A DNA stretch of 64,000 nucleotides from Naegleria gruberi (taxonomy: Eukaryota), in assembly GCA_000004985.1 (NCBI GenBank), contig GG738892.1; one strand, given 5' to 3'. Position numbers and translations under genes: made by a program. The notes below the pieces were generated by a model that was not told where the DNA came from, did not search any database, and worked only from the letters and a program-made list of their open reading frames with translations. Within the stretch, counting starts at the first letter, position 1, and the number at the start of each line of letters is the position of its first letter. Below are positions 1,251 through 64,000 of this stretch, one piece after another.

Positions 1251-1482
1251 TTTTTTTTAAATTATTTGTGTTTGGTTGACTTGATGGAATTTTTGTTTAT
1301 TTATGGTGTTATTTTGATTGAATGGAAAATTGATTGTAATTATCAGATCAGTTTGGATTTTGGGAAGAGAATGAGGAATGGATGATGATGAGAAGTAGCA
1401 GCAGAGAAGTAAATAGTTTAGAATAAAAAATTCACATTTCTCAGCTATTTATATGAAAAGAGAATATGATATAAAAAGGATT

Positions 1483-1554
1483 CTCCCATGCCGGGAATTG
1501 AACCCGGACCTCCTGGGTGAAAGCCAGGTATCCTAGCCATTGGACTACACGGGA
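1483..1554 (-). tRNA. tRNA-Glu (anticodon UUC), 72 nt.
   Basis: The reverse complement folds as a cloverleaf. The acceptor stem TCCCGTG/CATGGGA is 7 bp with one G-U pair. The D arm is GTCCAATGGCTAGGAT. The anticodon stem is CCTGG/CCAGG with loop CTTTCAC. The T arm is CCGGGTTCAATTCCCGG and the discriminator is G. It closely resembles eukaryotic cytosolic tRNA-Glu(TTC). Confidence 0.85.
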
Positions 1555-1813
1555 ATCTTGTTAACTTTTTCAATTGATTAATTATGAATTTTCTTCCACA
1601 CAGATTCTTTTTGGAAACGGATAAAGGAATTTTTGTAATGGACTATTTAAATATTGTAATCATTTTAACAAATGTCAAGGCTTACATGTAACATTTCGAG
1701 ATTTTTACTTTGGAAATCTTCCATCACAGATTCTTCACAAAATAAAATATCTTCAAAAAAAACAACTAAACCGCCACTTTCGAATAAAATCAATTATTTG
1801 AAAAAAGGACGAA

Positions 1814-28048: not shown

Positions 28049-31000
28049 ATGTCCAATCAAACCAAGATGGATCTTTCCATCGCTGAGAGAAGAGCCTACG
28101 AATTTCTTCTCCGTTCTGAAGAAGCCAAACGTTGGATTGAAGAAATGATTCAGGAAAAATTCGGTCAAGGCTCATCCATTGCCTACTTTGGTGAAATGAT
28201 GAGAGATGGTGTGGCCCTTGCAAAGCTCGCCAAAATTTTCGCGCCAACCCACGTAAAAAAAATCAACAAGCCTAGTCAGAATGCGATCAAGTTGGAATTT
28301 TCCTTGGTTGATAATATTACTCAATTTTTGAATGCTTGTAAATCAACTGGTTTTAGAGAGATTTATCTTTTTGGTATGTTTTGTTTTTTTGAAGTGATTT
28401 TTATTCATATTTGTATTGTTTACTTGTTGTGTGTATTGATAATTTTTGTGATGATGACTACTTGTTATGATTCATATGAATGATGGTTGTGTGATATGAT
28501 GATGATTGATGATAATATAATACTACAATATAGAGGTTACCGATTTGTGGGAATTGAAGAATGTTTACAAAGTGGTGCATTGTCTCCATTCACTTTCTGT
28601 TTACTTATACACAAATGGTTTGTCAATCAAGATGGAAAGACTCAAGTCACTCAATATTTCTAGGGAAGATTTGGAACGTACAAAGAAAATGCTTGATGAT
28701 TTGGAAAATTCTGGTATCAAATTTGATGATTCCATGATTGAAGGTGATGAAGGTGAAAGTAGCGAAGATTGTGACACTGATGTTAGATCAGACAAAATTA
28801 GAGAATACGTCACTAGTTTGGCCGATCCAGATCATTGTAAAGTAGATGGAGATAAGTTAAATTCAGCCATTTGTGGTGTGGAATCAAAATTCACAATCAC
28901 AGCTTTTGATTCAGATGGTAATTTATTAAAGGGTTGCCAAGACAAATTTGAAGTTCAATTGCAATCAGGATCAACAACATTCAATGCAAACGTCAAAAAT
29001 AATAGAGATGGTACTTTTGAAGTGAGCTACACTCCTCAAGTTGCTGGTGACTATGTCATGACCATTTCTCTCTTTGATGATGAATTGGGTGATGTTGTAG
29101 GTAACATTACAAATAAGAATGCATCAGATGGTGCTTGGAAAGTCAAGATTACAGCAAACCCTGTTTCTGATCTATCAAAATGTGTACTCAAACAACAAAG
29201 AGATAATGCCAAGAGAGTATATAGAGCTGGTCAAGTTATTGATGATCTCATCTTGGAAAGTAGAGACTCATGCGGAAATATTGGTCTTGGAGGTGAAAAA
29301 TTCGCTGCCAAGCTCATTTCCACTGTTGACAAGTCTGTTGTTTTCAATTCTAATGTTTTGGACAATAAGAATGGTCTCTATCAATTCATCTTCCAAATTG
29401 AAAGATCTGGTTCTTATGAATTGGAAGTTACTCGTGGTGATGAATACCTCTCCTCAACTCGTATTCCAGTCTCAATTCATGATTCTGGTAAGACTGATCC
29501 AAACAATTGTCTCTTCATTGGATTGGAAAGCAATTTGCTTCACTTGCTTGAAGATAATGGCAGCGAGTCCAACAAGGTCTTATCTTTGAGAAAGAAGGAA
29601 AATATTGTTAAATTGGAAAGAAAGGCAGGCGATGTCATTAGATTCTTGGTTCAAGCTCGTGACCAATATGGTAACAATCGTGAAGTTGATGGAACTAATG
29701 AATCCACTCTTCCACAACTCGTCTCTGAACAATTGACTGTTATTGCTTGTTTGGAAAGCTCTGATTCACCAACTATTGAAAATATTGACTCTGTTTTGAT
29801 GACTCCAAGAACTGCCATGGTTGCCAAGAAACTTGGTGAATCAGGTACTCAATCCGATGGTGTTGCTGTTGATTCTACAATTGTCAAGATTCCACACATG
29901 AAGAACGACTCTGAATTGAGTGTATTGTTGGGTCTTGAACAATATGCCCAAAAGTTCAATGGTTCTCAAGAAATGGAAAAGAAACTCTTTGAAACCATGT
30001 CCAAGTTTGTTTCTGAAAATGGTCATCACGGTTTGTACCTTGTTGAAACTAAATTGGTCGAAAGTGGAGACTATTCTTTGCAATGTAACTTGTTACAAGG
30101 AGATTGTACTTCCACATCAACTGCCGAAACTGACTCTGAATCCAAATCAAAGCCAACTCTCTACGCTGTTGGTCCAGCTCACACTGTTCACATTACTGAT
30201 AATGGTCTCACTGATGCTAGTCAATGTGCAATTGTTCAAAGTTTCTCCAAGGGTGAAAGTGTTTCCAATACTGTTGTTGTTCCAAACAGCTCACTCAAGT
30301 TGGATCTCCAGAAGGATGATTATGAAAATCCAGACAATTTTTCCGATACTTTCAAAAAGTTCCATGCTGGTCGTGAAATGCACATTATTGTTCAAGCTCG
30401 TGACAAGTTTGGAAATGCTCGTAACATTGTAGAAAGTGATGAATTCTTATTGAAACTCACTCCAAAACAAAAATCAGAACAATCTACTGAAGTTATTCCA
30501 GTGTCTGCCTCCTCACAAAAATTCGTTCAAGGAAAGGGTCTCTTTGAAATTGTCTACACTGCCAAGATTGCTCAATCATACTATATGGAATTGGCATATG
30601 TTGACAAGTCTAAACTTGCTCCAGAAGTCACTGAACAAGAAAAGGCAGCTGCTGCTCAATTGATCAAATCATTCCCACAAGAAATTACTGTCACTGATGC
30701 TGCAATTACTGATCCACACAATCTTTTATTCTCTGGTACTGGTATTACTAATGCTGTTCAAGGAAAGGAAAGTTTCTTTGTTTTGAGAATGAGAGATGAA
30801 TTTGGTAACTTGAGACACCAAGGAGGAGATGATGTTAAGGCTACTCTCATTTCTGATGCTCGTAAGCTCGAATCTGCTGCCGAAGTTATTGACAATAAGG
30901 ATGGTTCATACACTGTCAAGTATGTTGCTAAGGCCTCCGGTAAGAATCGTTTCGAAATTGTTATCAATGGTCAACTTGTCAAGAATAATGACATTTTGGA

Positions 31001-33383
31001 TGCTGGTGTTTTCGTTTCACCACCAAATATTGAAGATGCAAGCAATGTTGAAACTATTCTTGATCACGATTTACTCTCTGCCCTCATGAATGCTTTCCGT
31101 GTTGAACAAAAGACTGATAACTTGGTTGAACAAATCCAAGCTCTCAGACAAGAATTGGTTAAACAACTTCGTGAAAACACCAAGATTAGTACTGATGTCA
31201 GAGATAAGGAAAGAAAGATTGCTCTCCTTGCTGAAAACAAGTATCGTGCTGAAGAAATCATGAATCAAGGAAAGAGTGGTATTATTGGTTACTTCCAACG
31301 TCGTAAGACTATGCAATTCGGTGGACCTCTTGGAATTACCTCTGCTGCTGATGCCATGATTAAGGAAAATATCAGTCTCTATGGTAACTTGTTCTACTTG
31401 CTTCAAACTAATCCAAAGTATCTTGCCAAGTGTATTTTCCTCGTTCCTGCATCAGATGTTGATCAATTCCTCAATACTGTCACTTTGACCTTGTACGGTT
31501 ATGCTTTCAATCCTCGTGAAGAATATTTGATTTTGAACTTGTTCAATGAAACTCTCCAACTCGAAGTTAAGAGTTCCACATTGGAAAGTTTCTTGTCTGG
31601 TAACCCAATTCTCATCAAATTGTTGATTACTTATTGTCACGAAAGAATTTCAGGAAAGACCTTCTTGCAAAAGGTTTTGTACGACAAGATTTTGGATCCT
31701 ATCCTCGAAGAAAAGGATCTCAACTTGGATCTTAACCCAATCAGTCTTCTCCGTGATATTGTCTCTCAAAAGGAAGTTGAAACTGGTATCAAGAGCAATA
31801 TTGACTTTAAGGAAATGACCTATGAAAAGGCTATGGAAGCTGATGAAAATGTTCGTAATGCCATCAATTCTAGAAAGAACAGCTTGATCAAGATTTGTGA
31901 ACAAATTCTCAATTGTATCTATGATAACATTCCTGAATTGCCATATGGTTTACGTTTCGTTTGTCGTCAATTGAGAACTTTGCTCATGCAAAAGTATCCA
32001 AATCACGATGATGAAAAGAAGATTAACCAAGTCATTTCATACGTTCTCTTCTTCCGTTATTTGAACGCTCCACTTTGTACTCCTGATGGTTACAATTTGA
32101 CAAAGAAGAAGATTTCTCCACTCATGAGAAACAATCTTGCCCTCATTTCAAAGGTCTTGTTGAGAATTTCTACCTTCAGAGAATTTGAAGCCGTGGATAC
32201 TCACATGTTAATGATGAACGAATGGATTCGTGACAATATTCCATTGTTTAGCCAAAAGTTCTTGACTCCAAGTTTGGAAATCGTTGAACCAGAAGAATAT
32301 CTCGGTGTCAATCAATATGCTGAACTTACTCAAAAGAAGAATCCAAGCATTACCATTACTATTAATGAAATTGCCCTTACTCACTCTCTCCTTGTCAAGT
32401 TCAGCGGAAGAATCATCCCAACTGGTGAAGCTGCCGATCCACTTTCTGACCTCCTCACTCGTTTCAAGGATAAGATTCCAGAACAAGTTGAAACTGCCAA
32501 GAATGAAGAAATTACATTGTCTCTTGTCCCATTCAGTGTCAATGGAAAGGCTGAAGCCACTGATGACTGGCTCACACTTTCACCAGAACAATTGTACGAA
32601 GTTACAAAGGAAAATGTTAGAACTATTCTTCGTTACATTACTCCACTTCAATTGGGAGAAACCGTTGAGGATACCTTGTCAAAGTCTGACTCTTATGCTG
32701 ACGAAGTATTGAAGAATACTGAAAATATTGACAATGAAGTTGCTGGTTTGACAATCAAGAGAAAGGTCGAAGAAATTCGTAAGGCCCTTCCAAAATTGGA
32801 TGAAGCTCAAATCATTACCAAGGAAAATCACTACCGTAAATTGTTGATCGATATCACTAAGGAAATTCAAAATCGTGAAGAACTCCAAAAGAAGCAACAA
32901 AAGGAAGTGGAAAGATTGAAGGAAAGTTTGAACAGTTTGAGATCATATCACTCATTCTTGAAGGACAAGGATGTCAGCTTGGATGAATACGTTCAACAAA
33001 CTCTCAGAAACTATTTCAAGAAGCAAGAAAAGAAGAAGCAAGAATCTTCATCCAAGAGCAACAAGGTAAAGAGCTACAAGTTCAGCTATAAGGATTTGTC
33101 TGAAAAGTACAAGATTATCCACGACATTCAAGAAGGTTCATTTGGTACTCTCCAAAAGAAGGTTATCAAGTTTACAATTTCAATGAACGAAGGAGAACCA
33201 GGTGTCTTCTCAGTTTGTCCAACACTTGCTGGTAATGTCATTACTACTCTCCAACTCAGATTGGAAGATTTGCTCGATAAGCGTGAAAAGGGTCAAGAAC
33301 ATCTCAAGATTGAAGGTGTTGTGCTCAATGTCAACATGACCATTCACTTGCTCAATAAGAAATTCTTATCAAAGAATTAATTT
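28049..33383 (+). CDS. Large cytoskeletal/RasGAP protein with an N-terminal calponin-homology domain, several filamin-type Ig repeats, and an IQGAP-type RasGAP (GRD) plus RasGAP_C region. Exons are 28049..28373 and 28534..33383, with a 160-nt intron at 28374..28533.
   Basis: CH domain AYEFLLRSEEAKRWIEE...DGVALAKLAKIFAP...LFEVTDLWELKNVYKVVHCLHSLS spans the GTATGT..ATAG intron. Repeats carry filamin hallmarks such as DGTFEVSYTPQVAGDYVMTISL and GSYTVKYVAKASGKNRFEIVING. The GRD region reads YLLQTNPKYLAKCIFLVPASDVDQFLNTVTLTLYGYAFNPREEYLILNL. The C-terminus is coiled-coil and K/E-rich. Confidence 0.75.
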
Positions 33384-33624: not shown

Positions 33625-35169
33625 ATGAAAGCCTCATCATCACGCCTCCTCGTCTTGTGTTGTGGTCTATTGTTGATTCTCGGCCACTTGATTGAGGCAC
33701 AAAAGGTAAAGATTGATTCTACCTTTGGTACAAAGAATATGGTGGTGAATGATTTTGTTCAATATAATTTTCCTATTGTGATTCAACAAACACAATGTGC
33801 TTTACAAGTCTCGTTTGATTATAATATTAATGTTGGTATGAATGCCTCTCGATTTGCTTTCACTGCTGAGACTTTATCACCCAATCCATTCGGAACACTT
33901 CATACTCCAGCTACTACTAATTTGAAGATTTATGGATTGTACAAGATTACTTTTGAAGATTTTGATCCAAACACTGGAAGTTTAGATATTACAGTTGTTT
34001 TGAGTAATCCTAGTGGTTTCTTGAATGTTAATCCATTCTCGATGATATTTTACAAGAAGGCTGATGCTACATTGATGGGAGAATTTGTTGATGCTGAATC
34101 TCATGCATTTTCTGATTCTGTCATGATTGCAACTAATTATAACAACTTGTTGACACAAAATTTATTGGTTGCTGGTTTGTATGGTGATTTAGCTCAATCA
34201 GTTCAATCTAGAATTGACAAGTCAAATACTGTTCCAGGTCCAACAACTTTCCTCTTTGACATTCTTCCAAGTATGAGTCAATCCCTTATTATTGCATTCC
34301 CAAATCAAAAGCCAGCCAAGACTCCTCCAACCTTTACTTTGTCTGAATATAATGATTTTGAACCGACTGCTGTTCCAAAGGGTTATGTTTCTCTCCACTC
34401 TTATCAACTCTCCACTTCTGTTGATCCTCCAACATTTTCTGGTTCTACTTGGAGTTTAAGTTTTGATGCCACTGTTGGATTTTTTTTAAATGACGAGAAG
34501 ACTCCTGTTGAAATTCAACCATCAAGTCTTACATGTGCCTGTACTGCAAACTCTGATGAAATTTATCAAAAAGTGGAAAGCAGAGTTAGTACCGATAAGT
34601 TGACTTGTAAGATTGAAGATCCAACAACATGTGTCTATCCAATGATCATTGCTAGATTGGCCCCAAAGGAATCCGTTCCTGTTCAAGTTACTGACATGAC
34701 CTTTGGTCAAACCTTTAGAGAAAAGGTTGAATATGGTAATAAGAAGATGTTCAAGGTTGTTGTTCCTTCTAGTGTCAAGTTTACCATTTCTGCCAAGTCA
34801 CTCTATCAAGGAGAAACTGCAACATTGTTTGTTAATAGTAGAGGCTTCCCTACTGAAACTGTCAATATCGCCAGAAAGTCCATTGATAATAAGGAAACTA
34901 CTGTTACAATTGAAAATAAGGAAGTTGGTCCACTCGATTATTACATTTCCATTGCTCCAGTTTTTGCTGAAGGTGCTGTTATTATATTGAATGTTGATTA
35001 TAGCTCATCTCTGGATGATAACGCAATTATCATTTTATCTGTAACCATTCCAATGTTCTTTTTGGTTCTAATTGTTTGTATGATTTTGGTTGTCGTTCTC
35101 TGTAGAAAGAAGAAGCCAGTTATTGAAAGTGATCCTTCAATGTTCCACAAGCTTCAAGACAATCAATAA
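33625..35169 (+). CDS. Novel type I membrane glycoprotein (signal peptide, about 440-aa ectodomain, single TM, short tail). It is a paralog of the adjacent minus-strand gene.
   Basis: Signal peptide MKASSSRLLVLCCGLLLILGHLIEAQ. Conserved Cys cluster SSLTCACTANS..TCKIEDPTTC. TM AIIILSVTIPMFFLVLIVCMILVVVLC followed by RKKKP. I recognise no known domain. Confidence 0.6.
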   Translation: MKASSSRLLVLCCGLLLILGHLIEAQKVKIDSTFGTKNMVVNDFVQYNFPIVIQQTQCALQVSFDYNINVGMNASRFAFTAETLSPNPFGTLHTPATTNLKIYGLYKITFEDFDPNTGSLDITVVLSNPSGFLNVNPFSMIFYKKADATLMGEFVDAESHAFSDSVMIATNYNNLLTQNLLVAGLYGDLAQSVQSRIDKSNTVPGPTTFLFDILPSMSQSLIIAFPNQKPAKTPPTFTLSEYNDFEPTAVPKGYVSLHSYQLSTSVDPPTFSGSTWSLSFDATVGFFLNDEKTPVEIQPSSLTCACTANSDEIYQKVESRVSTDKLTCKIEDPTTCVYPMIIARLAPKESVPVQVTDMTFGQTFREKVEYGNKKMFKVVVPSSVKFTISAKSLYQGETATLFVNSRGFPTETVNIARKSIDNKETTVTIENKEVGPLDYYISIAPVFAEGAVIILNVDYSSSLDDNAIIILSVTIPMFFLVLIVCMILVVVLCRKKKPVIESDPSMFHKLQDNQ

Positions 35170-35185
35170 ATCACAATTTGATTGC

Positions 35186-36559
35186 TTAATTTATTTGTTC
35201 GTGCATTAGTAAATCGGATTTTCTATTTCTATACACAATAAAACCCAATACACAAACTATAAAAAGTAAAACCCAGTTCAATAGTACTGATAATCCAAGA
35301 CCGCTTGAAACTGCAATTAATTGAGTTTGTTGCAATAACGTTTCATTCAACATAGTTTCATAGTCACTTTGTGGTAATATTTGAATTGGATGAGACAGAG
35401 ATACTCTCTTGTTCCACACTCCTCTCATTTGGATTGTCAAGAAATAACTAGTTATCCTTGTCAAAACAACATTAGAAAGCGGAATCTGTAATTGATATAT
35501 GGAAGAACCAATTCTGTCCATTGCATTAATGGACACTTTCGCGTCATATCCTTTAAAATCCAATGAATAAGGAGCTGTCGGGTGAACATTTTCAAATTTG
35601 ATGAAAATGAAAGGGAATTGAGACGAATATCTAATATCATCACTTGCAAATGTATTCCCAGGTGATATTTTGAATGGCATTGGGGAGGATAGTGAGATAC
35701 GAGAGCATTTACTAACATCACCAGAACAGGAATAAACCTTCGAACGATAGCTCTCCAATTCCAACAGCTTGAAATAATACTTAGATGAACATGAGCAAAA
35801 GAGAGATGGTATTTCAGTCGAGTTAGTAATGTCTTCATCAAAACTAAATCTAAAGTCAAGTGTTGAGATGGTGAAATTCTCAATTGTAAAATTGAATGAC
35901 AGGATTGGTTTCAAATTGATTGGAAAATCCTTTTCAATATTTTTAACATTTTCCTGATTGAAAGTGATAAAACCTGGATTTTGAAGTGGTTTCTGTGGAA
36001 TGGACAGCTCAAGTTTTCCTTCTGTTGTCTGTGTTTCGATAAATCTTGGACCACATATTTCAATTTTTTCCCCAAATCTTAATTCAGATGGCAAGAGATC
36101 AGCATAGACACCCAAAATGAATTTGTTGTGAACTGCAGTAAAGGTTGACATTGGCATTTCATAACTGACGCTGGTCAAAGTTGCTTCCCTCTTTCCATGA
36201 ATTGAATGCCAACCATAATCTGAACACATAAAATCCACAGAATTTGACACTACATTATTCAGTCCGTCTGGATATCTAAATGTAATCTTTACAGAATCAA
36301 TTGAATTCTTTACAATTTCACCCTCAAATATAAAATCAAATCTGCTAATTCCCTTTCTATTCCCCTCATCCTTAAGATAGTTGTTTGAAACTTGCAAATC
36401 AAACGTAACCTTTCCCACAAGCCTAAACTCAACCATCAAAGTTGAGTATTGATTTGTGGAAAATTGACCTGCAAAATTCTTAGGATTAACCTTAATCTGT
36501 GTTTCAAACAACCACATTGTTATTGTCGTATCATCACTCAATGCGCAACAAACATTCAA
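35186..36559 (-). CDS. Novel type I membrane glycoprotein, paralog of 33625..35169. The 5' end is unresolved: the signal-peptide region reads through without an in-frame ATG into the gap-flanking duplicated block.
   Basis: Same architecture and homologous motifs (SFDEDITNSTEIPSLFCSCSSKY..SCSGDVSKCS aligns with SFDATVGF..SLTCACTANS..TCKIEDPTTC, and IPQKPLQNP with FPNQKPAKTP). C-terminal TM LGLSVLLNWVLLFIVCVLGFIVY. Signal-peptide-like LIFLFVILTLLNVCCALS sits immediately upstream of the first ATG. Confidence 0.55.
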   Translation of the reverse strand: MNVCCALSDDTTITMWLFETQIKVNPKNFAGQFSTNQYSTLMVEFRLVGKVTFDLQVSNNYLKDEGNRKGISRFDFIFEGEIVKNSIDSVKITFRYPDGLNNVVSNSVDFMCSDYGWHSIHGKREATLTSVSYEMPMSTFTAVHNKFILGVYADLLPSELRFGEKIEICGPRFIETQTTEGKLELSIPQKPLQNPGFITFNQENVKNIEKDFPINLKPILSFNFTIENFTISTLDFRFSFDEDITNSTEIPSLFCSCSSKYYFKLLELESYRSKVYSCSGDVSKCSRISLSSPMPFKISPGNTFASDDIRYSSQFPFIFIKFENVHPTAPYSLDFKGYDAKVSINAMDRIGSSIYQLQIPLSNVVLTRITSYFLTIQMRGVWNKRVSLSHPIQILPQSDYETMLNETLLQQTQLIAVSSGLGLSVLLNWVLLFIVCVLGFIVYRNRKSDLLMHEQIN

Positions 36560-46465: not shown

Positions 46466-47240
46466 TTACAAGAGATTGCAACCCTTCTTCTTTCCACTCT
46501 TGGTATCCTTTCCGACTGGAGTTGAAGGCTTTGACTTTCTAACTTCACGAACGAGGGCCATGAAAGCTTCATCAACGTTCAATCTTTGCTTGGCTGAGGT
46601 TTCCAAACTTGGGATGCTCAATTGCTTGGCAAATTGTTTACCTTCATCAGCACTGATGACTCTTTCAGATTCCAAATCACACTTGTTACCAACAAGAACC
46701 ATTGGGACTTTATCAGCATCCTTGACTCTCAAGATTTGTTCATAGAAATCATTGATTTCTTCAAAGGTCTTTCTGTCAATGACAGAGTAAACCAACAAGA
46801 AACCATCACCAGTTCTCATGTATTGATCTCTCAAAGCCTTGTATTCTATATAATAATTTATGTATCATCATCATAATAATATTGTTGTTGCCGGTTAATA
46901 ACAAAAAGTAAATATTTTCAAAAACAAACCTTCTTGACCGGCAGTATCCAAGATTTCCAAGAAACATGGCTTGTCATCAACTTTAGCGTGCTTTCTATAA
47001 GAATCTTCAATAGTTGGATCGTATTCTTCAACGAAGATGTTTTGAATGAATTGGACAGTCAAGGCACTTTTACCGACACCACCACCACCGACTAGAGAGT
47101 TGTATTAAATAATTATTCAAAGAAAGTTAGAAGAAAGCATATACGAAAGGTTGAAAGTTAACGTTAGAGAAGGTGAATATTTTGTTTTACATACCAACGG
47201 CGAGCTTGTATTCTTCCATACCAGAATTGTTTGAAGCCAT
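46466..47240 (-). CDS. Ras-family small GTPase, R-Ras/Rap-like, with CAAX box CNLL. Exons are 47195..47240, 46930..47091 and 46466..46855, with introns at 47092..47194 and 46856..46929.
   Basis: The spliced product reads [49 protein letters not shown]...[32 protein letters not shown]...[10 protein letters not shown]...[23 protein letters not shown]...KKKGCNLL. G1-G5 are all canonical. Junctions are GTATGT..CTAG and GTTTGT..TATAG with consistent phase. Confidence 0.85.
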
Positions 47241-50041: not shown

Positions 50042-53000
50042 ATGACAACCTCTACTCAACCGTTCACACATGGTTCATCATCACCCTCTACATCATCAAC
50101 AACTGTTTTACCCATAACAGATGTAGGAGGAGGAGGAGTTGATTCATCATCTAGGGTTGAATTGATGAAGGATGAGCATTATCAAAGAATGGAAAAGAAG
50201 GAACATGATGAAGATGGTTATAGAGTGTTCTTTGGTGATAGACAGTTGAATATGAAGCAGGTTAGGAGGGGATGGTTCGGGATGAAGAGGAAAAGATTTT
50301 CCGATAATAGTGTTTCAACTACAAAGGTATGTTCAACTCAGATGAACTATTTAATATTTATTAATAATATTTAATATTTAATATTTTTTGTAATCAATAA
50401 CATGCTGTTGATTGATGGAATGGCAAATTTTGTGTGAAATTAGTACACGTGGTGGAATTTCATTGTGTTGAATTTATTTCACCAATTGAAACATTTGAGT
50501 AATTTGTACTTTCTCCTAGCTCTGATTTTTGCATTCATTCCTGGAGTGAGTCCAACAACGCCCATTACACAATTACAAATAATTTTCATTATTTTGGTGA
50601 ATATGTTGAGAGAGGGAGGTGAAGATATATTGAGATATCTCAATGATAGAAAGGTCAATAGAAAGATGACGAATGTTTTGGTGGAGGATAAAGTGGTGCC
50701 AATTCACACGAGTAAGGTGAGAGTGGGGGATATTGTGAGAGTGGAATGTGATGAGACTATACCTGCTGATATGATTTTGTTGGGATCGTGTCATTGTGAG
50801 GAGGAATCAGATGGAAGAGTTTCACTTTCGTCCAATTGCAAAATTGAAACTGCCAATTTGGATGGTGAGACAAATTTAAAGACAAGATTTGGAATTTTGA
50901 ATGAAACAGTTCAAATGCCATCAAATCAAACAAAAGAGAATGTAATAATCAATACCTTGTTACAAATTAAGGGAAGTGTCGATTGTGAACTTCCAAGTGA
51001 AAATTTACACAGTTTCAAAGCTAGTGCTCTACTGAAATATTCACAGAATGAATCACAATCGAGATTAATTCCCATCAATCAACAACACTTACTTTTGAAA
51101 GGAACAATCCTCAAAGCAACTGAATATGTCTATGGATTGGTGATTTATTGTGGAAAGGACACCAAAATGATGAGAAACATGCAGAAAGGAAGAGTTAAAT
51201 TCACCTCTGTGAATTTTACAATGAATATCATGATTGGTATCTTGTTTGTGATCATGTGCTGTTTGTGTATTGCCTTTGCAGGAGTTTCGTCCTATTTTGA
51301 ATTCACACTTGCCAAAATTTCAAGCTACACTGGTAAATCTACATTGAATGTCAGCAATGCTGCCAGTGTTGTGCTCTCCATGATGACATTCTTTATTCTT
51401 TTCAATTCGTTGATTCCAATTTCTCTATTTGTGACTTTGGAATTTGTTAGAATGTTTCAGGCATGGCTTGTGAATATGGATAATGAAATGGCAGTTTACG
51501 ATGCTGATCCACATGATCCAGTATCGAGAAAGACACTCATTTCTGCATCTTCACTCTCTTCTGAGCTTTTACCTGATTTGGCAACAGTTGACATTATATT
51601 CTCAGATAAGACTGGTACTCTGACAGAAAATTCCATGATTTTCAACAAGATTTGTTTTGGAACAAACTATGTTCATGATGATAAGGTCAATAATGGTCAA
51701 CTAAACACTTTGATTCAACAATCTCTTAAAGAAACAACTGATCAAGCTCAAACAAATGATTCAAAGAATGAAAATACGTTTGGAGAGGATGAATTATTCC
51801 AATCTCTGAATACCATGCTACTTCTCTCACTGTGCCACAATGTAGATGTGAGAGCTTCTGACGATTCTCAATCTTCCTCAGTGGAATTATTGGAAAATGT
51901 CGAAGAAACTCGTCCATACTATGAAGGAGCTAGTGTTGATGAAGTTGCTCTTGTGAATGGTGCTTTCAATAATGGGTTCAAGTTGAAATTTTACTCTGAA
52001 AAGAAAACCATCGTCTCCATATTTGGAATTGATTATACCTTTGAAAGATTGTGTGAAATACCCTTCACACCAGAGAGAAAGAGAATGTCAACCATTTTCA
52101 AAATTCCTAAAGAATTTCTTCAAGCTTTCCCAATTTACAGAAGGAAGACAGGACTTGAAAATGAAGAATCACTTGTCGTCTGTTTCACAAAAGGAGCAGA
52201 CAGTTTTTTATTCCCATACATTGAGGAAAATCAATCGAATTCAGCACTGAAAGGTAAACTTGAACAGCATATTTTGGAGTTTGCCAAAGATGGACTCAGA
52301 ACACTGTTACTGGCCTACAAGTTTATTCCAAATCAGAATATAGTTGATGAGTTTGTTATCAAGTATAATGAATTGAAATCAAAGCAAGAAGTTCAACAAG
52401 AGTTGTTAGATACATTGGAAAATGAAATGGAGAGAAATTTACAAATTTCTGGAGCTACTGGAATTGAAGATTCACTTCAGGAGAAAGTTCCAGAGACTGT
52501 CAAATTCTTCCTTGATGCTGGTCTTCAATTGTGGATGCTGACTGGAGATAAGACTGAAACGGCGATCAACATTGCAGGAATGTCTAATTTTATTGGAAAG
52601 GAAACTAGACTAATCTATCTTAATGGAGAAGAATTTAAATCAGATCAATGCATGGAACAATTACAAATCAAACAAAAAGAAATTGGAGAAGAGACGGATG
52701 TAGCTCTTGTCATTGATGGATTGGCCCTTTCCTATTGTGTCGAAAACAATGAGAAACAAGATTTATTCTTTGAAATTGTGAAAAAATGCAAGACTGTCAT
52801 TTGTTGTAGAGCTACCCCAAAGCAAAAATCACTTCTTGTTGGTATTGCACAAAGGAAATTGAAAAAGAAAGGATTAGCTATAGGAGATGGTGCCAATGAT
52901 GGTAAGTTTATGGTTAGAATTTGAATTTTTACAATTAATAGTTCCAATGATTCAAAAGGCAAAGATTGGTGTAGGGATTATTGGAAAGGAAGGATCTCAA

Positions 53001-53828
53001 GCAAAGCTCAATTCTGATTTTGCCATTCCAAGATTCCACATGTTGAGAAAATTATTGGCTGTTCATGGAAGATACTCATTTAAGAGATGTGCCAAACACA
53101 TCTTTTATAGTTTCTACAAGAATATCAGCGTCACTTGTTTGCAGATCTATTTCACCTTCTATACCATGTATTCAGGTCAGACACTTGTGGATGCCAATAA
53201 CCTTTCGTGGTGGAATTTATTCTTTACCATTCTCAATACGTTCATTTATGGTTGGTTCGATAAGGATATTCGTGAATCAAAATTATTGGATGAAAAACTT
53301 GGACCTAAACTGTATGCCAGTTTAAAGAAGGAGAATATCTTTAATCTCTACATGTTTACAAGATGGATTGGATCTGGTATTGTTCACTCATTGATAATTT
53401 TCATGGTGGTGATTTATGGAACTGAGGGTTCCATTTTCGGCAATGGACAAGATTCAGATAGTTTGTGGCTTAAATCTGTGTTGGCAACTTCATGCATGAT
53501 TTGTGTTGTGAATTTTAAGTGTTATTTGGAGATGGAAGACTTTACAATTATTAATCATGTATGCATGTTCCTTTCGTTTGTGATTTTCTATGGATACAAT
53601 ATTTTGCTAACAGCTTATCCAAAAACTATTGGAGTAGTAATGACTGACACTTATTTATTTGGAGCTTGGGATGGTGGAATACGATCTGCTATCTTCTGGT
53701 TTGTCCACATCTTTGGTATTGTTGTTCCATTGAGTTTGGATCTTGCTGGTCATGGTTTTAAAGTGCTTTTTTGGCCTGATGAATATCAGAAAGTGAAATT
53801 GATGAAACTTCCAGAACCAAAAGTGTAA
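50042..53828 (+). CDS. P4-type ATPase (phospholipid flippase). Exons are 50042..50326, 50444..52901 and 52942..53828, with introns at 50327..50443 and 52902..52941.
   Basis: The exon 1/2 junction gives NSVSTTKYTWWNFIVLNLFHQL...LYFLLALIF, the P4 N-terminal NxIxTxKY motif. Phosphorylation site DKTGTLTEN. P4 hinge TGDKTETAINIA. GDGANDG|VPMIQKAKIGVGIIGKEGSQA spans the 40-nt GTAAGT..ATAG intron. Ten TM segments are predicted. Confidence 0.85.
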
Positions 53829-56498
53829 TTACATCAATAAACATGATTGGTTATCCTCATTTGTTGCTGTAACAATATCTGATTTTCCAAATCCCGTATT
53901 ATTTTCCATAATTGTTGAAGATGTTTCCTCTTCTACATCAGTTTGTTCCAACAATTCTTTTTGAAGAACAGCTGTTGAATATAGGCCACCAACAACCGAC
54001 TTGTATAGTTCGGTATTCTTCCTTGATTTTGATAATGTCCTATCAAATGCACTCCAAAATGTTACATCCTGCCCTTCATGGTGTGAAAACTTGATAGAGC
54101 CAACCATAATTTGATTTGATTTGTAAAATCTAAATGTGTAGATGAGTGAAAGAACATCCTTCGTCTTGAACATGTGATCGATAGTAAGAGTTCCAACAAT
54201 AACTTCACCATGATTCGGTAACCTATTGAAAAACCCTTGTCTGTATGCCATATCCATAAAATCAGCCTTCTCCCTCAAATATTCCAATATCTTGTCAGAT
54301 ATTATTTTGAAATCCAATCCAAATAATAGATATTTCTTGTTGGAAATTTCAGGGACATATTTGGTTTTTTGATTGTTTTGGAAAATACTAGTTAATGCAG
54401 AATCATTAATTTTGTAATTGTCCATTTCAATTGGATGTGAGATGAGACTTTTGATTTCAATCCATAATTTGTGCATTTGTTTAGCCCAGCTTGGATGAAT
54501 GCTGAAATTCTGTGTAATAATAGGAACATTATCCATATTTAAAAACTCTAACTTTTTCAGATTGGAAATATCCAGAGAAGACAATTCACAGGTCTCTCTT
54601 GTGGTACTATTCTGATTAAAGACGAATCTATTACACCCTGCTAAATCTAAAAGGATGAGATTTTCCAAATCTTCTATACACTGTACGTTCAAAACTCTTT
54701 GTTGTGGAACAGATTTTAAAACGAATACTTCCAACTTTTTCAAGTCAACAATAGATAGACAATCAAAATTTCCATCAATGTTTGGGAATTTCAAATATTT
54801 CAAATTTTTAAAGCTCTCAAACTTGGGATAGGAGTTAAAAGTGCTATCTTCACATATGATAGACTCTGCATTGTTGCCAAGATTTTTGAAAAATTGTTCT
54901 GTGCTGTGAATGGCAGATTGAGAGATATGGATTTGTTTCACTTTGGAGCAACATGCCCACACATTAGGTTCAAATGGTATAGATGGTATAACTATTCCGC
55001 AAAGAGTCAAACTTTGGAGAGAAGGAGCTACAAGTTTTGAGATAATTGACATGTTATGGGTTGAAGTCATTTTAAAGCTTTCAAGTTTTGAAAATATGTT
55101 AGGAATGATGAACAAGTTAGACTCTTGGCGCTCTTCAATAATGGTAAGGTTTCTGCATGATTCTATGTTAAAATGAATATTTTCAGATGGGAGTTTCACT
55201 CGGGCACTCTTGTTAAAAATACATGTTAGAGAAAGGTTGATTAATGTATCGTTCAGCTTGCAAAGCCACTCCAATTGGCTCCACATGCTCATATTAATTA
55301 TTGTAAAATTCAATCGTGTAATTTTCGTAAAATTAACAAGATACTCCAACATTTGAATCAGAGTGTTGACAGATGTTTCAATATTAGGAGAATACGTAGA
55401 ATCGGTAATGTTCGAAATGTCAAAGCATAGAGACAATTCTTGGAGATTGCATCGAGGTTGGAATGTTGTTGAGGTTAGCATGTTTGGATTTATGCTCTGA
55501 AATCCTGTAAATAGTGAATTGAGAAGAAATACATCTTGTGGAGTCTTGATGGCCAAGCTACATCTGAAAGATTCGAGAAGCAGGTTCTCTCTTATTTCAT
55601 TTCTTGAACAAAGAATATTCTTACAATAACTCAGTACATCCCCAATTGTTATACTATTACAATGAGTTCCCAAGTCAAGATCGAGATGTTTCAAGGTCCA
55701 CTGTCCAGCATGATGATCGTTGGAAGAAAACTTCTTGATCATATCCAAAAACAATTTAGCAATTTCAGTGTTTGATGTTAGTTTCAATTTTAATCCTTCC
55801 AATATGTTGAAAAGTCCAATTCCATAATTTTCCAAAGTGAATAATTTTGAAATAGTTGAAAATATTGGAGAGTCCGCTTCAATGTCCTTATAAATCGTGA
55901 GTGAGGATTCAAATTCCATGTATTTTACATTTTTTGTGTTTGCCTGCAAGAAGATTGTCAACATTTTACAAATACAATTATCGAATACTTGTTTGAAATT
56001 TTCATCCCCAATCACATCGCACAGCACATGAATAAATTCAACTCTCTGGTCATAATGTTTCATGTTACTTGAAATGATTTTTCTAGTTGATGTTAAACCT
56101 TGCACTTCAGGAGTGAGATTCCACGTATTTCTCCAAGATTTGAATGCACCTTGCTTTGATTTAAAATAGGGTTCAAAAACACTCAATGTTGATAAATTTG
56201 ATGACTTTTTCTCCTCCGATATTGGTAAGAATTGTTCAATAATTTCCTTACTATTTGGAGCAATTAAAAGACCTTCATGAACAGTCCTATAAAACTCTCT
56301 ATTCGTCAATGCTGCTCTCTTGATCAATGTCCAACTATCGAGAAAGGAAAAGATCATTCTGAGAACATAATTATGTTGTTGTTCATTCGATAAATCTCTT
56401 CTATCGCAACCCATTAATAATTTACCAAATGGTTGTTCTTGTCTCTTCATCGATGATGAATATTTACATTCTTTGTATGATGATGGAAGACTTTTCAT
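53829..56498 (-). CDS. F-box-like/LRR-type large protein (889 aa).
   Basis: N-terminal F-box-like NYVLRMIFSFLDSWTLIKRAALTNREFYRTV. The rest is leucine/isoleucine-rich and repeat-like with no enzymatic motif. The stop codon abuts the stop of the convergent P4-ATPase gene with zero spacing. Confidence 0.55.
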   Translation of the reverse strand: MKSLPSSYKECKYSSSMKRQEQPFGKLLMGCDRRDLSNEQQHNYVLRMIFSFLDSWTLIKRAALTNREFYRTVHEGLLIAPNSKEIIEQFLPISEEKKSSNLSTLSVFEPYFKSKQGAFKSWRNTWNLTPEVQGLTSTRKIISSNMKHYDQRVEFIHVLCDVIGDENFKQVFDNCICKMLTIFLQANTKNVKYMEFESSLTIYKDIEADSPIFSTISKLFTLENYGIGLFNILEGLKLKLTSNTEIAKLFLDMIKKFSSNDHHAGQWTLKHLDLDLGTHCNSITIGDVLSYCKNILCSRNEIRENLLLESFRCSLAIKTPQDVFLLNSLFTGFQSINPNMLTSTTFQPRCNLQELSLCFDISNITDSTYSPNIETSVNTLIQMLEYLVNFTKITRLNFTIINMSMWSQLEWLCKLNDTLINLSLTCIFNKSARVKLPSENIHFNIESCRNLTIIEERQESNLFIIPNIFSKLESFKMTSTHNMSIISKLVAPSLQSLTLCGIVIPSIPFEPNVWACCSKVKQIHISQSAIHSTEQFFKNLGNNAESIICEDSTFNSYPKFESFKNLKYLKFPNIDGNFDCLSIVDLKKLEVFVLKSVPQQRVLNVQCIEDLENLILLDLAGCNRFVFNQNSTTRETCELSSLDISNLKKLEFLNMDNVPIITQNFSIHPSWAKQMHKLWIEIKSLISHPIEMDNYKINDSALTSIFQNNQKTKYVPEISNKKYLLFGLDFKIISDKILEYLREKADFMDMAYRQGFFNRLPNHGEVIVGTLTIDHMFKTKDVLSLIYTFRFYKSNQIMVGSIKFSHHEGQDVTFWSAFDRTLSKSRKNTELYKSVVGGLYSTAVLQKELLEQTDVEEETSSTIMENNTGFGKSDIVTATNEDNQSCLLM

Positions 56499-58803: not shown

Positions 58804-59257
58804 TTTCGAATAAGTTTATCTTGTTTAAATAGAAATATTACAAGAGCTGCATCTTAATTGACTTAGTGCGTTCACACGGACACGATATAAATGGTAAAAT
58901 TTTGGTAATGTATGGGGTCCGTGCAGAGTTTCTTCAAATTTGATAGATTAGTCCGTCATTATCCAATGAAACTCACTTGTTTCTTTCTTGAGGAGAATTA
59001 CAGAGTTCACCATCGTTGATAAACAAAAGTCTTGTAATGTTTCGTCTACAGTTCATTTACAAACAATTGCACCGTTTGAAAAGTCCGTTGCTCTCCCGTC
59101 ATGATTTGATGGAATTCCAAAGGAAGTTTTCAAAGTATGTGCATGAAAATATATTTGGACAATTTATTTTTTTAGCTTTACAAATGACAAATCTTTTTTG
59201 AACTTTAAAACCAAATCATTGCTCTGGTTCAGTTTCAATATCAAAATCAAAAAAATG

Positions 59258-61141
59258 AATCGGTTCATTTCGTATTTGTTTCTTCTGGCTATTCTATTTG
59301 TTTTTTATAAGCCAGTTCAATGTCAAACTATTGCAGTGATCAACAATTCATTGCAAGTTTATAATGGCGACAATGTTACCATTACAACAACCAATTTACA
59401 GTCAACTGTCAATGGAATTGTTGAACCACGTGTCATTTACACAGTTACTTCAGTTACCAATGCTCGTTTCCTCCGTTATAACACTACCTTTGGTTTCTAT
59501 CTCGATACCAACACTTTCTCTGTTGCCGATGTCACTAACGGACTTATTTTATTCTCCCATTTTGGTAATCAAGAACTCCCAACTTTTACCTTAAATGTCT
59601 ATGATCCATTTTACAATATTAGTACAACTGCTATTGGAAATATTGAATTCACAGCCTTCAGAAGAGGAACCATTGGTGCTCCACGTCCAGGTTTCTTTGC
59701 CAGTGTCGATCCAACTACCTTAATTGTCACACTCCGTATCAGAATGTATTTAAGAGTTTTCTCACCACCAGAAGTCAAATTCAACATTGGACTTTCTGCA
59801 TTGACAGCTTGTCAACAAACTGATTTAATTAGAGATGGATTTGTTTACAATGCAGGAACTTCCACTTACTGGTATAGTGATTATGTCCTTTCATTGCCAT
59901 TGTCAAGTTACTTGTCAAATCCAAATGTTCAACAAATTTCAACTGGAGGTGTCATTGATTTGGTTGCATTGATGTATGCTGAATACATGATTACTACTTA
60001 CACACCATTGCCATCTACTTCAACTGGTGGTGATGTTTATGTTGCTCCACCAATTTCTGGAACTTGTTACAAAGTCATTTATCAACAACGTTATATTTTG
60101 ACATTGGTTCTTCAAGTGACACGTGTCAGTTTTAATACTACTGGTGGAATTACCACTGGAGGTAATAACTGTACTGCTTATATACAACCAAAGAGAATTT
60201 TCGTTAATGATTTGGGTAAATTGGAAATTAGAATGATTGTTTGGACACTTTTGGCACCACCTGTCACATCATGGACAGTTACTGGACCATATTTCTTTAA
60301 TGTTACTGATGCCATATTCACTGGTACTGCAAATGGTTATTATCAATATACAATTGTAATGCAGTCAAATGTCATTAATGGACCAATCGACTTTTATGGT
60401 GATTATGTACTGACCTACTTATCCCCTGATGGATCTGGTTGTACAATTTCATATTCTTTACAATATGTGGTTCCTTACCCTGTCATTACTCAAGTTTTAC
60501 AATATAATACCACAGCTCAAACTTATGGAAATGCTGCCTTGACAATTGCTCAAACTCAATTCGCGGCAACTGACACTATCTATGTCAGAGTTGATGTTCC
60601 AGGTGCTCCTAGCGTTCCTTACATGACCATTTCCCCATACAATGTCATTATGTGTTGTTTCCTCGATTTCACAACCATTCCTGTCAATGTCGACTGTCGT
60701 AACGCTTCCAACTCTGATTTCAGTACTCAAATCTATATCAATGGAGTTCCTCAAAGCACTGGTGGTTTAAATGCTGCTACCCTTCCTCCTCCATCCACTT
60801 CCAGTTATGGTTTCCAATTCGATCTCCCATTTGCAATCAGAGATGGTCTCGATAGAAGATGTTTCCTAACCATCGAGTCTGCCTATTTACCTACAAATAC
60901 TACCACTGTTAGAAGTCTATTCAAGGAAGAAAATGTAGAAACTAGAAGTTTGGCAGCTAATCCTGTGGCTAATACCGTTGTTTCACTTACTTATCGTTTG
61001 TTTGATATCGTTCCAAAGTCAACTAAGGGAGGTGCTGGAGCAGGTGGTGTTGTCAGTGGAGCATTCTCAATTGTCAGAGGAGGTGGAAATATGTGGATTC
61101 TTTCCTTGACTCTAGTATTGATCAAGTTATTCATCTTGTAA
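59258..61141 (+). CDS. Secreted Thr/Ser/Tyr-rich surface protein with a C-terminal hydrophobic tail (GPI-anchor-like). No recognisable domain.
   Basis: Signal peptide MNRFISYLFLLAILFVFYKPVQC. A 600-aa region rich in T, S, Y, N and V with many N-x-T/S sites. The C-terminus GGAGAGGVVSGAFSIVRGGGNMWILSLTLVLIKLFIL looks like an omega-site followed by a hydrophobic GPI signal. The ATG follows an A7 run. Confidence 0.55.
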   Translation, partial: NRFISYLFLLAILFVFYKPVQCQTIAVINNSLQVYNGDNVTITTTNLQSTVNGIVEPRVIYTVTSVTNARFLRYNTTFGFYLDTNTFSVADVTNGLILFSHFGNQELPTFTLNVYDPFYNISTTAIGNIEFTAFRRGTIGAPRPGFFASVDPTTLIVTLRIRMYLRVFSPPEVKFNIGLSALTACQQTDLIRDGFVYNAGTSTYWYSDYVLSLPLSSYLSNPNVQQISTGGVIDLVALMYAEYMITTYTPLPSTSTGGDVYVAPPISGTCYKVIYQQRYILTLVLQVTRVSFNTTGGITTGGNNCTAYIQPKRIFVNDLGKLEIRMIVWTLLAPPVTSWTVTGPYFFNVTDAIFTGTANGYYQYTIVMQSNVINGPIDFYGDYVLTYLSPDGSGCTISYSLQYVVPYPVITQVLQYNTTAQTYGNAALTIAQTQFAATDTIYVRVDVPGAPSVPYMTISPYNVIMCCFLDFTTIPVNVDCRNASNSDFSTQIYINGVPQSTGGLNAATLPPPSTSSYGFQFDLPFAIRDGLDRRCFLTIESAYLPTNTTTVRSLFKEENVETRSLAANPVANTVVSLTYRLFDIVPKSTKGGAGAGGVVSGAFSIVRGGGNMWILSLTLVLIKLFIL

Positions 61142-61916: not shown

Positions 61917-63977
61917 TTACCAATTATCACCACAAGAACATTTTCCGTTTTCAAAATGATGAAAACGTGAAGCATCTCTTACAATAATTTTGCAGTTTCT
62001 GACTTTTGAGATATACTTTGTAGCATTATGGCAATCTCCACAAACTCTCAAATTGTTAGCAATTCTAATAGTGGAACCTTTTGGTTGGTGAATAAAAGCA
62101 TAGGCCATGGCCAATTTTTCTGAATGGCGACACAATAAATTCTTTTTCTCGTCGTCTGTAAATGTTCCGTGTTTAGTAACCCACCTTAAATCAGGCTCAT
62201 AGCCAGCATCAATCATTTCCTGAGTTAGTTTCATTAACTCTTCTTCTATTTGTTTAATTTCAGGGTGGTTTTTGTCGTTACTAACAAAACTATATGTTTT
62301 TCCATTGATTTCAATAGTTGTTACTCCCGGAATCTTCTTTGCATTTTCTGATTTCATTTCTTTTTTGAGAAGTTCTACCTCAAGGTCCTCACCAAAGTAC
62401 GAATAAATATTCGCTAGCAGGATATAATTGGACGAATCAGTTTTGTCTATTTCCTTTAAAATAGCAAAAGCCTTCCTTGCTCTCTCCAAATCATTATACT
62501 TTCTACATCCTCCTAAATAAGTACTCCACAATATTAATTCTTTGCTGTCACCAATTATTTTTTCTGCTTCTTCAAATAATCCAGAACGAACTAAACCATC
62601 CACCAAACAAGCTGTGTGCTTTATGGTTGGTTCGATATGATACTTGCTTGGCAGTTCTCTATAGAGATTAATGGATTTCTCAGGCATCATGTTGTGGCTG
62701 TATGCAGAAAGCATGTGAAGAAGAGTTTCTTCATTCGGTTCGAAGCCTTGCTCTATCATCTTGTCGAATATTACTTCTGCCTGTTTGGCTCTCCCATTTT
62801 GAGCACATGTTGCGAGTACTACGTTCCATGTAATGATTGAAATTGGGTATTCTCTTCGCAATAAATCTACAAATAACTCAAAGGTTTTCTCTATTTCTCC
62901 CATTTTACCATAAAAGTTTAGGATAGTATTGTGTAGTTCAATTTCCTGAAAATGATATTTTTCAGCAATTTGATGTATTTCAATACCTTGCTTCAAAGAT
63001 ATACCATCAGAATATAAAGAAAGCATTGATATCAGTGAAATATAATCAAAATTTTTCAATCTTAACATTTCTTCAAAAGTTTCTTTTGCCCTATCATAGA
63101 TTTTGAAAACAGAGTAGAATTTAAGTATAGAATTACGCAATTCCAAACCACATTCAAAAAGTGGTGGCAGTAGTGCAATAATTTCTTCTCCTTCTTTTTT
63201 CAGCAATTTGTTTGTACACTCATTTAGCATTACAATAAATGAAACTTCGGAAGTCTGTTTAGTTGACATCATGTTGTAAAAGAGAGAGAAGGCTTCTGAT
63301 ATTCTCTCATCTTTGAAGAGGATTTTTAGTATCGTATTACACATTGGAGTATCGGGATTCTTGAAAGAGTAGAAGGTCTCAATAGATCTCTCAACCTCCC
63401 CTAAGTTTGCGTAAAATGAAATTACAGAGTTCATAACAATAGGATCTTTGCATTGGTTTTGTTCTATTAAACCACATATTTCCTTTCCTCTCTCAAATAG
63501 GTTGTTAGAAATACAAGCATTCAGCATAATAACGAATGTGCTATTTGATGGCTCGGCAAGTCTACGAAAATTTTCAAAAGCAAGATCAATTTTACCGCTT
63601 GAAAGAAGAGCTTGTAAGTAACAATTCCAAGTTATTATATTCTTTTGAGGAGAATTAGTAAACAACTCAATAGCTGTTTCATATTGCCCACATGTGGAAT
63701 AAAAACTAATTAAACAAGTAATTAAAGTGATATCGTTAAGCAAATGTGGAAACAGTTCAACAATAATTCGGTGAATAGATTTTCCTCCTTCTAAATATTT
63801 GATTTTAGAGCAAGATTTGATGAGCGTTGTAAACAAAATAGCATCAGGAGAAACACTCATTTCCAACAAGATGTTCTTCACATCTTGCAAGCGATAATTC
63901 TCTATCAATTTTTCGGTTACTTTTGTTATATCTATTATTGTTGGTGCTTCCATTTGGTTGAATAGTCTAATTACCAT
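61917..63977 (-). CDS. Pentatricopeptide-repeat (PPR) protein with a C-terminal E/DYW-type cytidine-deaminase-like domain.
   Basis: Tandem roughly 35-aa helical repeats, for example ITWNCYLQALLSSGKIDLAFENFRRL and VSFIVMLNECTNKLLKKEGEEI. The C-terminus carries the DYW-domain signatures HSEKLAMAYAF (HxE) and CGDCHNATKYIS (CxxCH) and ends in a ...CSCGDNW tail. It is a single 686-aa ORF. Confidence 0.8.
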   Translation of the reverse strand: MVIRLFNQMEAPTIIDITKVTEKLIENYRLQDVKNILLEMSVSPDAILFTTLIKSCSKIKYLEGGKSIHRIIVELFPHLLNDITLITCLISFYSTCGQYETAIELFTNSPQKNIITWNCYLQALLSSGKIDLAFENFRRLAEPSNSTFVIMLNACISNNLFERGKEICGLIEQNQCKDPIVMNSVISFYANLGEVERSIETFYSFKNPDTPMCNTILKILFKDERISEAFSLFYNMMSTKQTSEVSFIVMLNECTNKLLKKEGEEIIALLPPLFECGLELRNSILKFYSVFKIYDRAKETFEEMLRLKNFDYISLISMLSLYSDGISLKQGIEIHQIAEKYHFQEIELHNTILNFYGKMGEIEKTFELFVDLLRREYPISIITWNVVLATCAQNGRAKQAEVIFDKMIEQGFEPNEETLLHMLSAYSHNMMPEKSINLYRELPSKYHIEPTIKHTACLVDGLVRSGLFEEAEKIIGDSKELILWSTYLGGCRKYNDLERARKAFAILKEIDKTDSSNYILLANIYSYFGEDLEVELLKKEMKSENAKKIPGVTTIEINGKTYSFVSNDKNHPEIKQIEEELMKLTQEMIDAGYEPDLRWVTKHGTFTDDEKKNLLCRHSEKLAMAYAFIHQPKGSTIRIANNLRVCGDCHNATKYISKVRNCKIIVRDASRFHHFENGKCSCGDNW

Positions 63978-64000
63978 TTCTAGATTTCCAGAAGTACAAT

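Follow-up and report, generated by a model that had tools for sequence, protein, structure and literature searches.

How does a protein built like a land-plant organellar RNA editing factor come to be encoded in the nuclear genome of Naegleria gruberi, and what would it do there? The question is raised by a 64,000-nucleotide stretch of contig GG738892.1 (GenBank assembly GCA_000004985.1), which we refer to as a whole as the window. At its right-hand end, on the minus strand, lies an open reading frame (ORF; 61917..63977) that had been predicted, from the letters alone, to encode a pentatricopeptide repeat (PPR) protein with a C-terminal DYW-type cytidine deaminase domain. Our data confirmed this plant-type architecture in a non-plant genome, with the order PLS-E1-E2-DYW supported by both Pfam and structure matches. 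The gene is native to the N. gruberi nuclear genome and is one of the 10-11 previously described N. gruberi nuclear genes for DYW-type PPR proteins, from which it does not differ in kind. We consider it probable, by analogy with the characterized members of the PLS-E1-E2-DYW family, that its product is a mitochondrial factor for site-specific cytidine-to-uridine (C-to-U) editing, acting on a known site or on one yet unfound.

Architecture, extent and active site of the PPR-DYW gene

Searches with PPR, E and DYW profiles returned matches to every family, all far above chance, which confirms that the observation of DYW and PPR content is real. In the numbering of the ORF, Pfam DYW_deaminase (PF14432) is matched over its full length (profile positions 1-93/93) at residues 592-686 with an E value of 6.8e-46, preceded by E_motif at residues 494-556 (3.7e-30) and by Eplus_motif (E+) at residues 561-588 (1.6e-14). 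The ORF also matches PPR (3e-29) and PPR_2 (1.9e-32), as well as PPR_1 and PPR_3. The C-terminal signatures on which the original prediction drew, namely, HSEKLA (62126-62109), CGDCH (62042-62028) and a terminal GDNW, were all located, and alignment places the HSE and CxxCH elements on their counterparts in the DYW profile and in solved DYW structures. A segment that had been taken for an E-like linker, EEELMKLTQEMIDAGYEPD, is likewise present (ORF residues 578-596), but it bridges the Pfam E+ and DYW matches, covering the end of the former and the start of the latter, and it falls within the 139-residue DYW domain under a motif scheme with boundaries derived from the PPR-DYW structure 9kfx.

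The ORF runs through 686 codons without interruption, as originally delimited. Its ATG at 63977 is merely the first one seen and is not the true start codon, as the frame continues open past it up to the end of the window at base 64000. At 100% identity, the translation corresponds to residues 175-860 of a deposited "predicted protein [Naegleria gruberi]" that is 860 residues long (P0001, encoded on a 342-kb contig), and when read to base 63998, it matches residues 168-860. From the open frame and this match, it follows that the gene is truncated by the window, with its first 167 codons lying outside; the N terminus of the full-length protein is known solely from the deposited protein P0001. 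By translation identity to P0001, what the window holds is thus the 3' part of a single-exon PPR-DYW gene (61917..64000, minus strand; residues 168-860 plus the stop codon at 61917..61919). This part contains no intron, and the reading frame of P0001 comprises 860 uninterrupted codons.

To describe the motifs, we took consensuses from the 9kfx alignment and then set the motif boundaries manually; residue numbers of the motifs are those of P0001, and all features lie on the minus strand. A PLS-type PPR tract of 14 motifs, in the order P-L-S-P-L-S-P-L-S-L-S-P2-L2-S2, occupies residues 188-654 (62538..63938), as supported by Pfam, alignments to 5iww and 9kfx, motif search, and manual delineation. 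Two weaker PPR-like motifs precede it at residues 121-187, partly or wholly beyond the window. The PLS rhythm is short of one P motif, and several motifs are 31-34 residues long. The tract is followed by an E1 motif of 34 residues (655-688; 62436..62537), recovered using phmmer with the E1 consensus (E value of 6.4e-07) and by Pfam E_motif, and by an E2 motif of 33 residues (689-721; 62337..62435), placed by motif delineation and by alignment to the E2 motif of 9kfx. The DYW cytidine deaminase domain, supported by PF14432, by matches in the PDB, and by an AlphaFold2 model, makes up the last 139 residues (722-860; 61920..62336) and contains, besides HSEKLA and CGDCH, the PG box PGVTTIE (62330-62310), the element RFHHF (61967-61953), and the C-terminal end CSCGDNW (61940-61920).

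When the last 206 residues were aligned with homologues from metagenomes, lycophytes, and Naegleria, the columns at H138, E140, C166, C169, H170, H193, C200, and C202 (counted within this C-terminal segment) proved invariant. Within the motifs, these are His and Glu in HSE, His and both Cys in CGDCH, the leading His in HHF, and each Cys in CSC, and they cover the catalytic zinc site as well as a second metal site. The latter, together with the expansion of DYW proteins in Naegleria, was described by Iyer et al. 2011 (PMC3239186) for a clade of plant and Naegleria DYW domains. In a sequence search of the PDB, the best match was the synthetic PPR-DYW protein 9kfx (E value of 3.9e-116), in an alignment that begins at the last PLS triplet, reaches the C-terminal residue, and has no large gaps, and further matches were obtained to the PLS9-PPR protein 5iww (2.6e-43) and to the DYW domains of Arabidopsis OTP86 (7o4e; 2.2e-34) and DYW1 (7w86; 2.1e-30). 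HSEKLA, CGDCH, HHF, and CSCGD are in register with 9kfx, and HSE and CGDCH are also in register with OTP86 and DYW1.

Structure prediction points in the same direction. The AlphaFold2 model of the E1-E2-DYW region, with a mean predicted local distance difference test score of 90.9, can be overlaid on 9kfx, the crystal structure of an RNA-bound PPR-DYW protein, with a template modeling (TM) score of 0.92 and a root mean square deviation of 1.7 Å over 205 columns (Foldseek E value of 9.3e-23), and it contains the predicted cytidine deaminase fold with the DYW-specific insertion. The next Foldseek matches were 7o4f and 7o4e (OTP86) and 7w86 (DYW1), at 1e-9 to 1e-11, followed by bacterial cytidine deaminase toxins. 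The gene is intact, with the full architecture of a plant editing factor and with all catalytic and zinc-ligand residues. It shares with the land-plant PLS-E1-E2-DYW factors (Arabidopsis OTP86 and DYW1, moss PPR56 and PPR65, and the synthetic 9kfx) the order of its domains, the HxE and CxDCH catalytic center, the second zinc site (H, H, CxC), and the fold, to which the TM score above attests for 9kfx, whereas its full-length sequence identity to these factors is about 30% or less. The host also differs from land plants, as it lacks a plastid and only two editing sites are known from it; plant editing helper proteins did not turn up in our analysis, which included no search aimed at them.

Nuclear origin and relatives of the gene

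The plant-like architecture, which is all that speaks for such a scenario, might suggest that the ORF is not a Naegleria gene but contaminating plant DNA or an assembly artifact. We regard this as exceedingly improbable. The guanine-plus-cytosine (GC) content is flat at 0.32-0.38 over the whole 64 kb, and the ORF itself, with a GC content of 0.334, a third-position GC content (GC3) of 0.294, and a codon usage correlation of r = 0.84 with its pooled neighbors, falls within the range of 20 other long ORFs and cannot be told apart from them. The gene is contiguous, on the 342-kb contig, with ordinary eukaryotic nuclear genes typical of a protist, among them genes for Hsp70-like and acyl-CoA-synthetase-like proteins, ABC transporters, and Ras GTPases. 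Flanks, GC content, and codon usage are thus Naegleria-like rather than plant-like. Its nearest relatives, moreover, are N. gruberi paralogues and proteins of Willaertia magna, at 30-40% identity, and heterolobosean sequences form a clade with 88% bootstrap support, while plant proteins are 22-28% identical over their full length in a word-based search and named lycophyte proteins about 30-36% identical over the matched stretches in an exhaustive search. By composition, codon usage, gene neighborhood, and nearest relatives, plant contamination was rejected and is effectively refuted.

The exhaustive HMMER search, which covered 1.84 billion representative proteins at an E value of ≤0.001, returned 16,730 relatives. 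The best nonself match was the hypothetical protein KAL9657062 of Willaertia magna (P0152), at 40% identity and an E value of 8.6e-152. The N. gruberi paralogues XP_002679496, XP_002682650, and XP_002674667 are 37-39% identical in this search and 30-34% identical over their full length by BLASTP. Other named top matches include a second Willaertia protein, the lycophytes Diphasiastrum and Selaginella, a liverwort, a conifer, and the amoebozoan Balamuthia. Neither the word-based nor the exhaustive HMMER searches turned up a relative of >50% identity in any other species, other Naegleria included, and a word-indexed homologue search with the C-terminal 206 residues yielded mostly short fragments and no named Naegleria paralogues. 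Top metagenomic or unnamed matches (P0032, from a JGI metagenome, and P0040, from GCA_041825655.1) lie on contigs that, at 1-2 kb, offer no informative context. GCA_041825655.1 encodes, on contig JBBELT010015599.1 at 927-1364, a 145-residue DYW fragment that is 58% identical to the DYW domain of the N. gruberi protein and has the heterolobosean-like features LCRHSEKLA and GKCSCGNYW.

In a neighbor-joining tree of the E1-E2-DYW region, Naegleria, Willaertia, and two metagenomic fragments form the 88% bootstrap clade mentioned above, with Balamuthia outside it, and the N. gruberi gene pairs with KAL9657062 at a weak 50% support. The two proteins carry the same FENGKCSCGDNW ending and have a near-identical DYW core, but their PPR-code residues are unlike at most motifs. 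One-to-one orthology was rejected, as the best N. gruberi match of the Willaertia protein is another paralogue (P0153), so that no reciprocal best match exists, and as the code residues are not conserved. Judging from these residues, the two proteins probably serve different RNA targets. The shared rare ending nevertheless suggests, at the level of sequence, that a DNW subclass has been conserved among heterolobosean DYW domains, despite the difference in PPR specificity residues between the two proteins.

The set of relatives retrieved here agrees with the published picture, in which the Naegleria proteins are a lineage-specific expansion and their nearest outside relatives are early-branching land plants. 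The original prediction had stated that DYW proteins outside plants have been attributed to horizontal transfer, and this is indeed the published view: transfer from early land plants is the explanation given, on the basis of phylogenies (PMC4202320, PMC13386178). The DYW-PPR proteins of other nonplant organisms (Acrasis kona, Physarum, Acanthamoeba, Balamuthia, rotifers, malawimonads, and the diplonemid PPRD1) are also members of this family, which is patchily distributed and has expanded in individual lineages (PMC4202320; 10.64898/2026.09.04.749523). In published trees, the Acrasis proteins group with Physarum and the Naegleria proteins lie elsewhere (PMC4202320).

A putative mitochondrial editing factor and its alternatives

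According to the summary in Fu et al. 2014 (PMC4202320), Knoop and Rüdinger described the DYW-PPR proteins of N. gruberi in 2010 (FEBS Lett 584:4287), and two mitochondrial C-to-U sites were verified in the organism by Rüdinger et al. in 2011 (RNA 17:2058). The original prediction that this organism edits its mitochondrial transcripts is thereby borne out. The same points are repeated by Yang et al. 2017 (PMC5421314) and in a 2026 MBE paper (PMC13386178). Both the family and the editing were published in 2010-2011, so the finding at this locus is correct and already known.

Within this setting, we propose the following model for the function of the protein. It would be imported into the mitochondrion, where its PPR tract of about 14-16 motifs would bind a specific single-stranded RNA with one nucleotide per motif, S2 being placed at position -4, by analogy with plant factors and the 9kfx complex. 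The DYW domain would then deaminate a single C to U directly 3' of the bound stretch, at position 0. In this reaction, zinc would be coordinated by the HSE His together with both Cys of CGDC, while the HSE Glu would serve as a proton shuttle. As the target, the model allows either of the two verified N. gruberi mitochondrial sites or one yet unfound.

At their fifth and last positions, the P and S motifs carry TD, TN, NS, ND, NS, ND, NS, and NN. In the PPR code, T or S with N specifies A, T or S with D specifies G, N with D specifies U, N with S favors C over U, and N with N specifies a pyrimidine. Read in this way, the tract would recognize an upstream element, 5' to 3' from -19 to -6, of Y ? 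G n A Y n U Y n U n Y Y, in which the pyrimidine at -19 is weaker; positions -5 to -1, between the predicted element and the edited C, are unspecified. With regard to targeting, the first 26 residues of P0001 contain no acidic residue and hold 7/8 of the Lys and Arg residues counted in the first 40, a composition that is compatible with a mitochondrial presequence and that constitutes weak evidence for one.

Several observations weigh against an assignment as a mitochondrial editing factor. The predicted RNA element is soft, given that the PLS rhythm lacks one P motif and that shortness or irregularity affects several of the PPR motifs. Mitochondrial targeting is argued from residue composition only, and the amphipathic moment is modest (≤0.46). 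The protein also departs from land-plant factors in more than this irregular rhythm: its PG box reads PGVTTIE in place of the plant PGxSWIE, with TT for SW, although P and G themselves are invariant; a Tyr replaces the plant His in the PG-box "xxHxF," a change common to other heterolobosean-like sequences; and the C-terminal tripeptide is DNW and not DYW. Terminal variants such as DFW, EYW, GYW, and others are common among the retrieved sequences, and DNW is rare, being found in 3 proteins. The biochemical functions of protist PPR-DYW proteins have been called uncharacterized in a 2026 preprint (10.64898/2026.09.04.749523). Finally, 10-11 DYW-PPR genes stand against just two known sites, so that most paralogues are orphans, and PMC4202320 leaves this excess unexplained. 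Because of this ratio, the prior for this paralogue serving a known site is modest, and it may itself be an orphan.

It is unlikely, in our estimate, that the protein belongs to the approximately 8-9 "orphan" Naegleria DYW-PPR proteins, either editing an undetected site or having been repurposed for another deamination or for RNA processing, possibly outside the mitochondrion. If it does, the undetected site may lie, for example, in an unassigned mitochondrial ORF, in a tRNA or rRNA, or in a low-abundance transcript, and the DNW variant common to Willaertia would mark a functionally distinct subclass. A rival reading, an orphan paralogue in which editing is given up altogether, strikes us as unlikely: the PPR tract would bind organellar RNA and the protein would act in stabilization, cleavage, or splicing, or outside the mitochondrion, and the DYW domain would be kept for something other than editing C to U at specific sites. 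Fu et al. (PMC4202320) have in fact proposed roles in endonucleolytic cleavage or splicing or in cytoplasmic activities, and such a role would be in line with the surplus of genes over sites, with PPR-code residues that are not conserved in the closest Willaertia relative, and with the lack of a >50% identical orthologue among the other Naegleria species covered by the homologue searches. Against it stand the deaminase catalytic and zinc residues, which are all intact and invariant and which argue for selection on deaminase chemistry, and a predicted model that fits an active, RNA-bound editing enzyme with a root mean square deviation of 1.7 Å.

The same residues bear on the idea that the gene is a recent duplicate losing its function, decaying or already inactive, and tolerated as the editing load is tiny. 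The irregular PLS rhythm, the short motifs, the deviations in the PG box, and the DNW terminus could all be read as signs of such decay, but the 860-codon frame is uninterrupted, every catalytic residue is kept, and the rare FENGKCSCGDNW ending, identical in the Willaertia magna protein, suggests a variant maintained since before the two genera split. We regard decay as very unlikely, and a site-specific mitochondrial C-to-U editing factor as the probable identity of this protein.

Neighboring genes and significance of the locus

The original prediction had pointed out that the DYW gene shares the window with an R-Ras-like GTPase bearing the motif GGGGVGKS. The motif is indeed present at about 47089 (minus strand), in a Ras-like exon, but it lies 15 kb and several genes away, and no link to the DYW gene was found. 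This Ras-family exon, at about 46900-47130 (minus strand), also contains DTAGQE and is flanked by stops on both sides, indicating that its gene has introns. The ORF convergent with the DYW gene, at 59198-61141 (plus strand), encodes 647 residues with a signal-peptide-like start, a weak cadherin-like match, and a hydrophobic C-terminal tail; it is rich in Thr, Asn, and Tyr, has the lowest codon usage correlation in the window (r = 0.71), and, from these sequence features, probably encodes a surface protein.

Further features of the window include two overlapping ORFs in different frames, at 50465-52924 and 52887-53828 (both plus strand), which between them encode a P4-ATPase phospholipid flippase with its N-terminal, P-type ATPase, and C-terminal domains and which probably belong to a single gene, divided by a short intron or a frameshift. 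An intronless ORF of 2019 residues at 11289-17348 (minus strand), with a REV3 N-terminal domain, a BAH domain, the exonuclease and polymerase domains of family B polymerases, and a C4 zinc finger, encodes a DNA polymerase zeta-like catalytic subunit; a BAH domain within a REV3-like protein is an unusual combination. Filamin/Ig-like repeats are joined to RasGAP and RasGAP_C domains in an IQGAP-like arrangement in a 1611-residue ORF at 28545-33380 (plus strand), and a receptor-type cyclase, which starts with a periplasmic-binding-protein-like domain and has an adenylate/guanylate cyclase catalytic domain at its C terminus, is encoded by a 1446-residue ORF at 20925-25265 (minus strand). Three long ORFs have no Pfam match at an E value of ≤1e-4, namely, 53829-56498 (minus strand; 889 residues), 35186-36559 (minus strand; 457 residues), and 33625-35169 (plus strand; 514 residues). 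A single tRNA-Glu(UUC) gene was identified at 1482-1555 (minus strand) by ARAGORN and Rfam alike.

The locus adds no new fact on the DYW-PPR family or on editing in N. gruberi, both of which had been established by 2010-2011. Its remaining value is practical, in that it provides an intact, single-exon, 860-codon candidate editor in an organism for which the excess of such genes over editing sites is still to be explained. Nonplant DYW-PPR proteins such as this one bear on the potential use of compact natural PPR-DYW editors as programmable RNA base editors, and they bear on the origin of organellar C-to-U editing itself, where horizontal transfer is set against ancient inheritance accompanied by loss.

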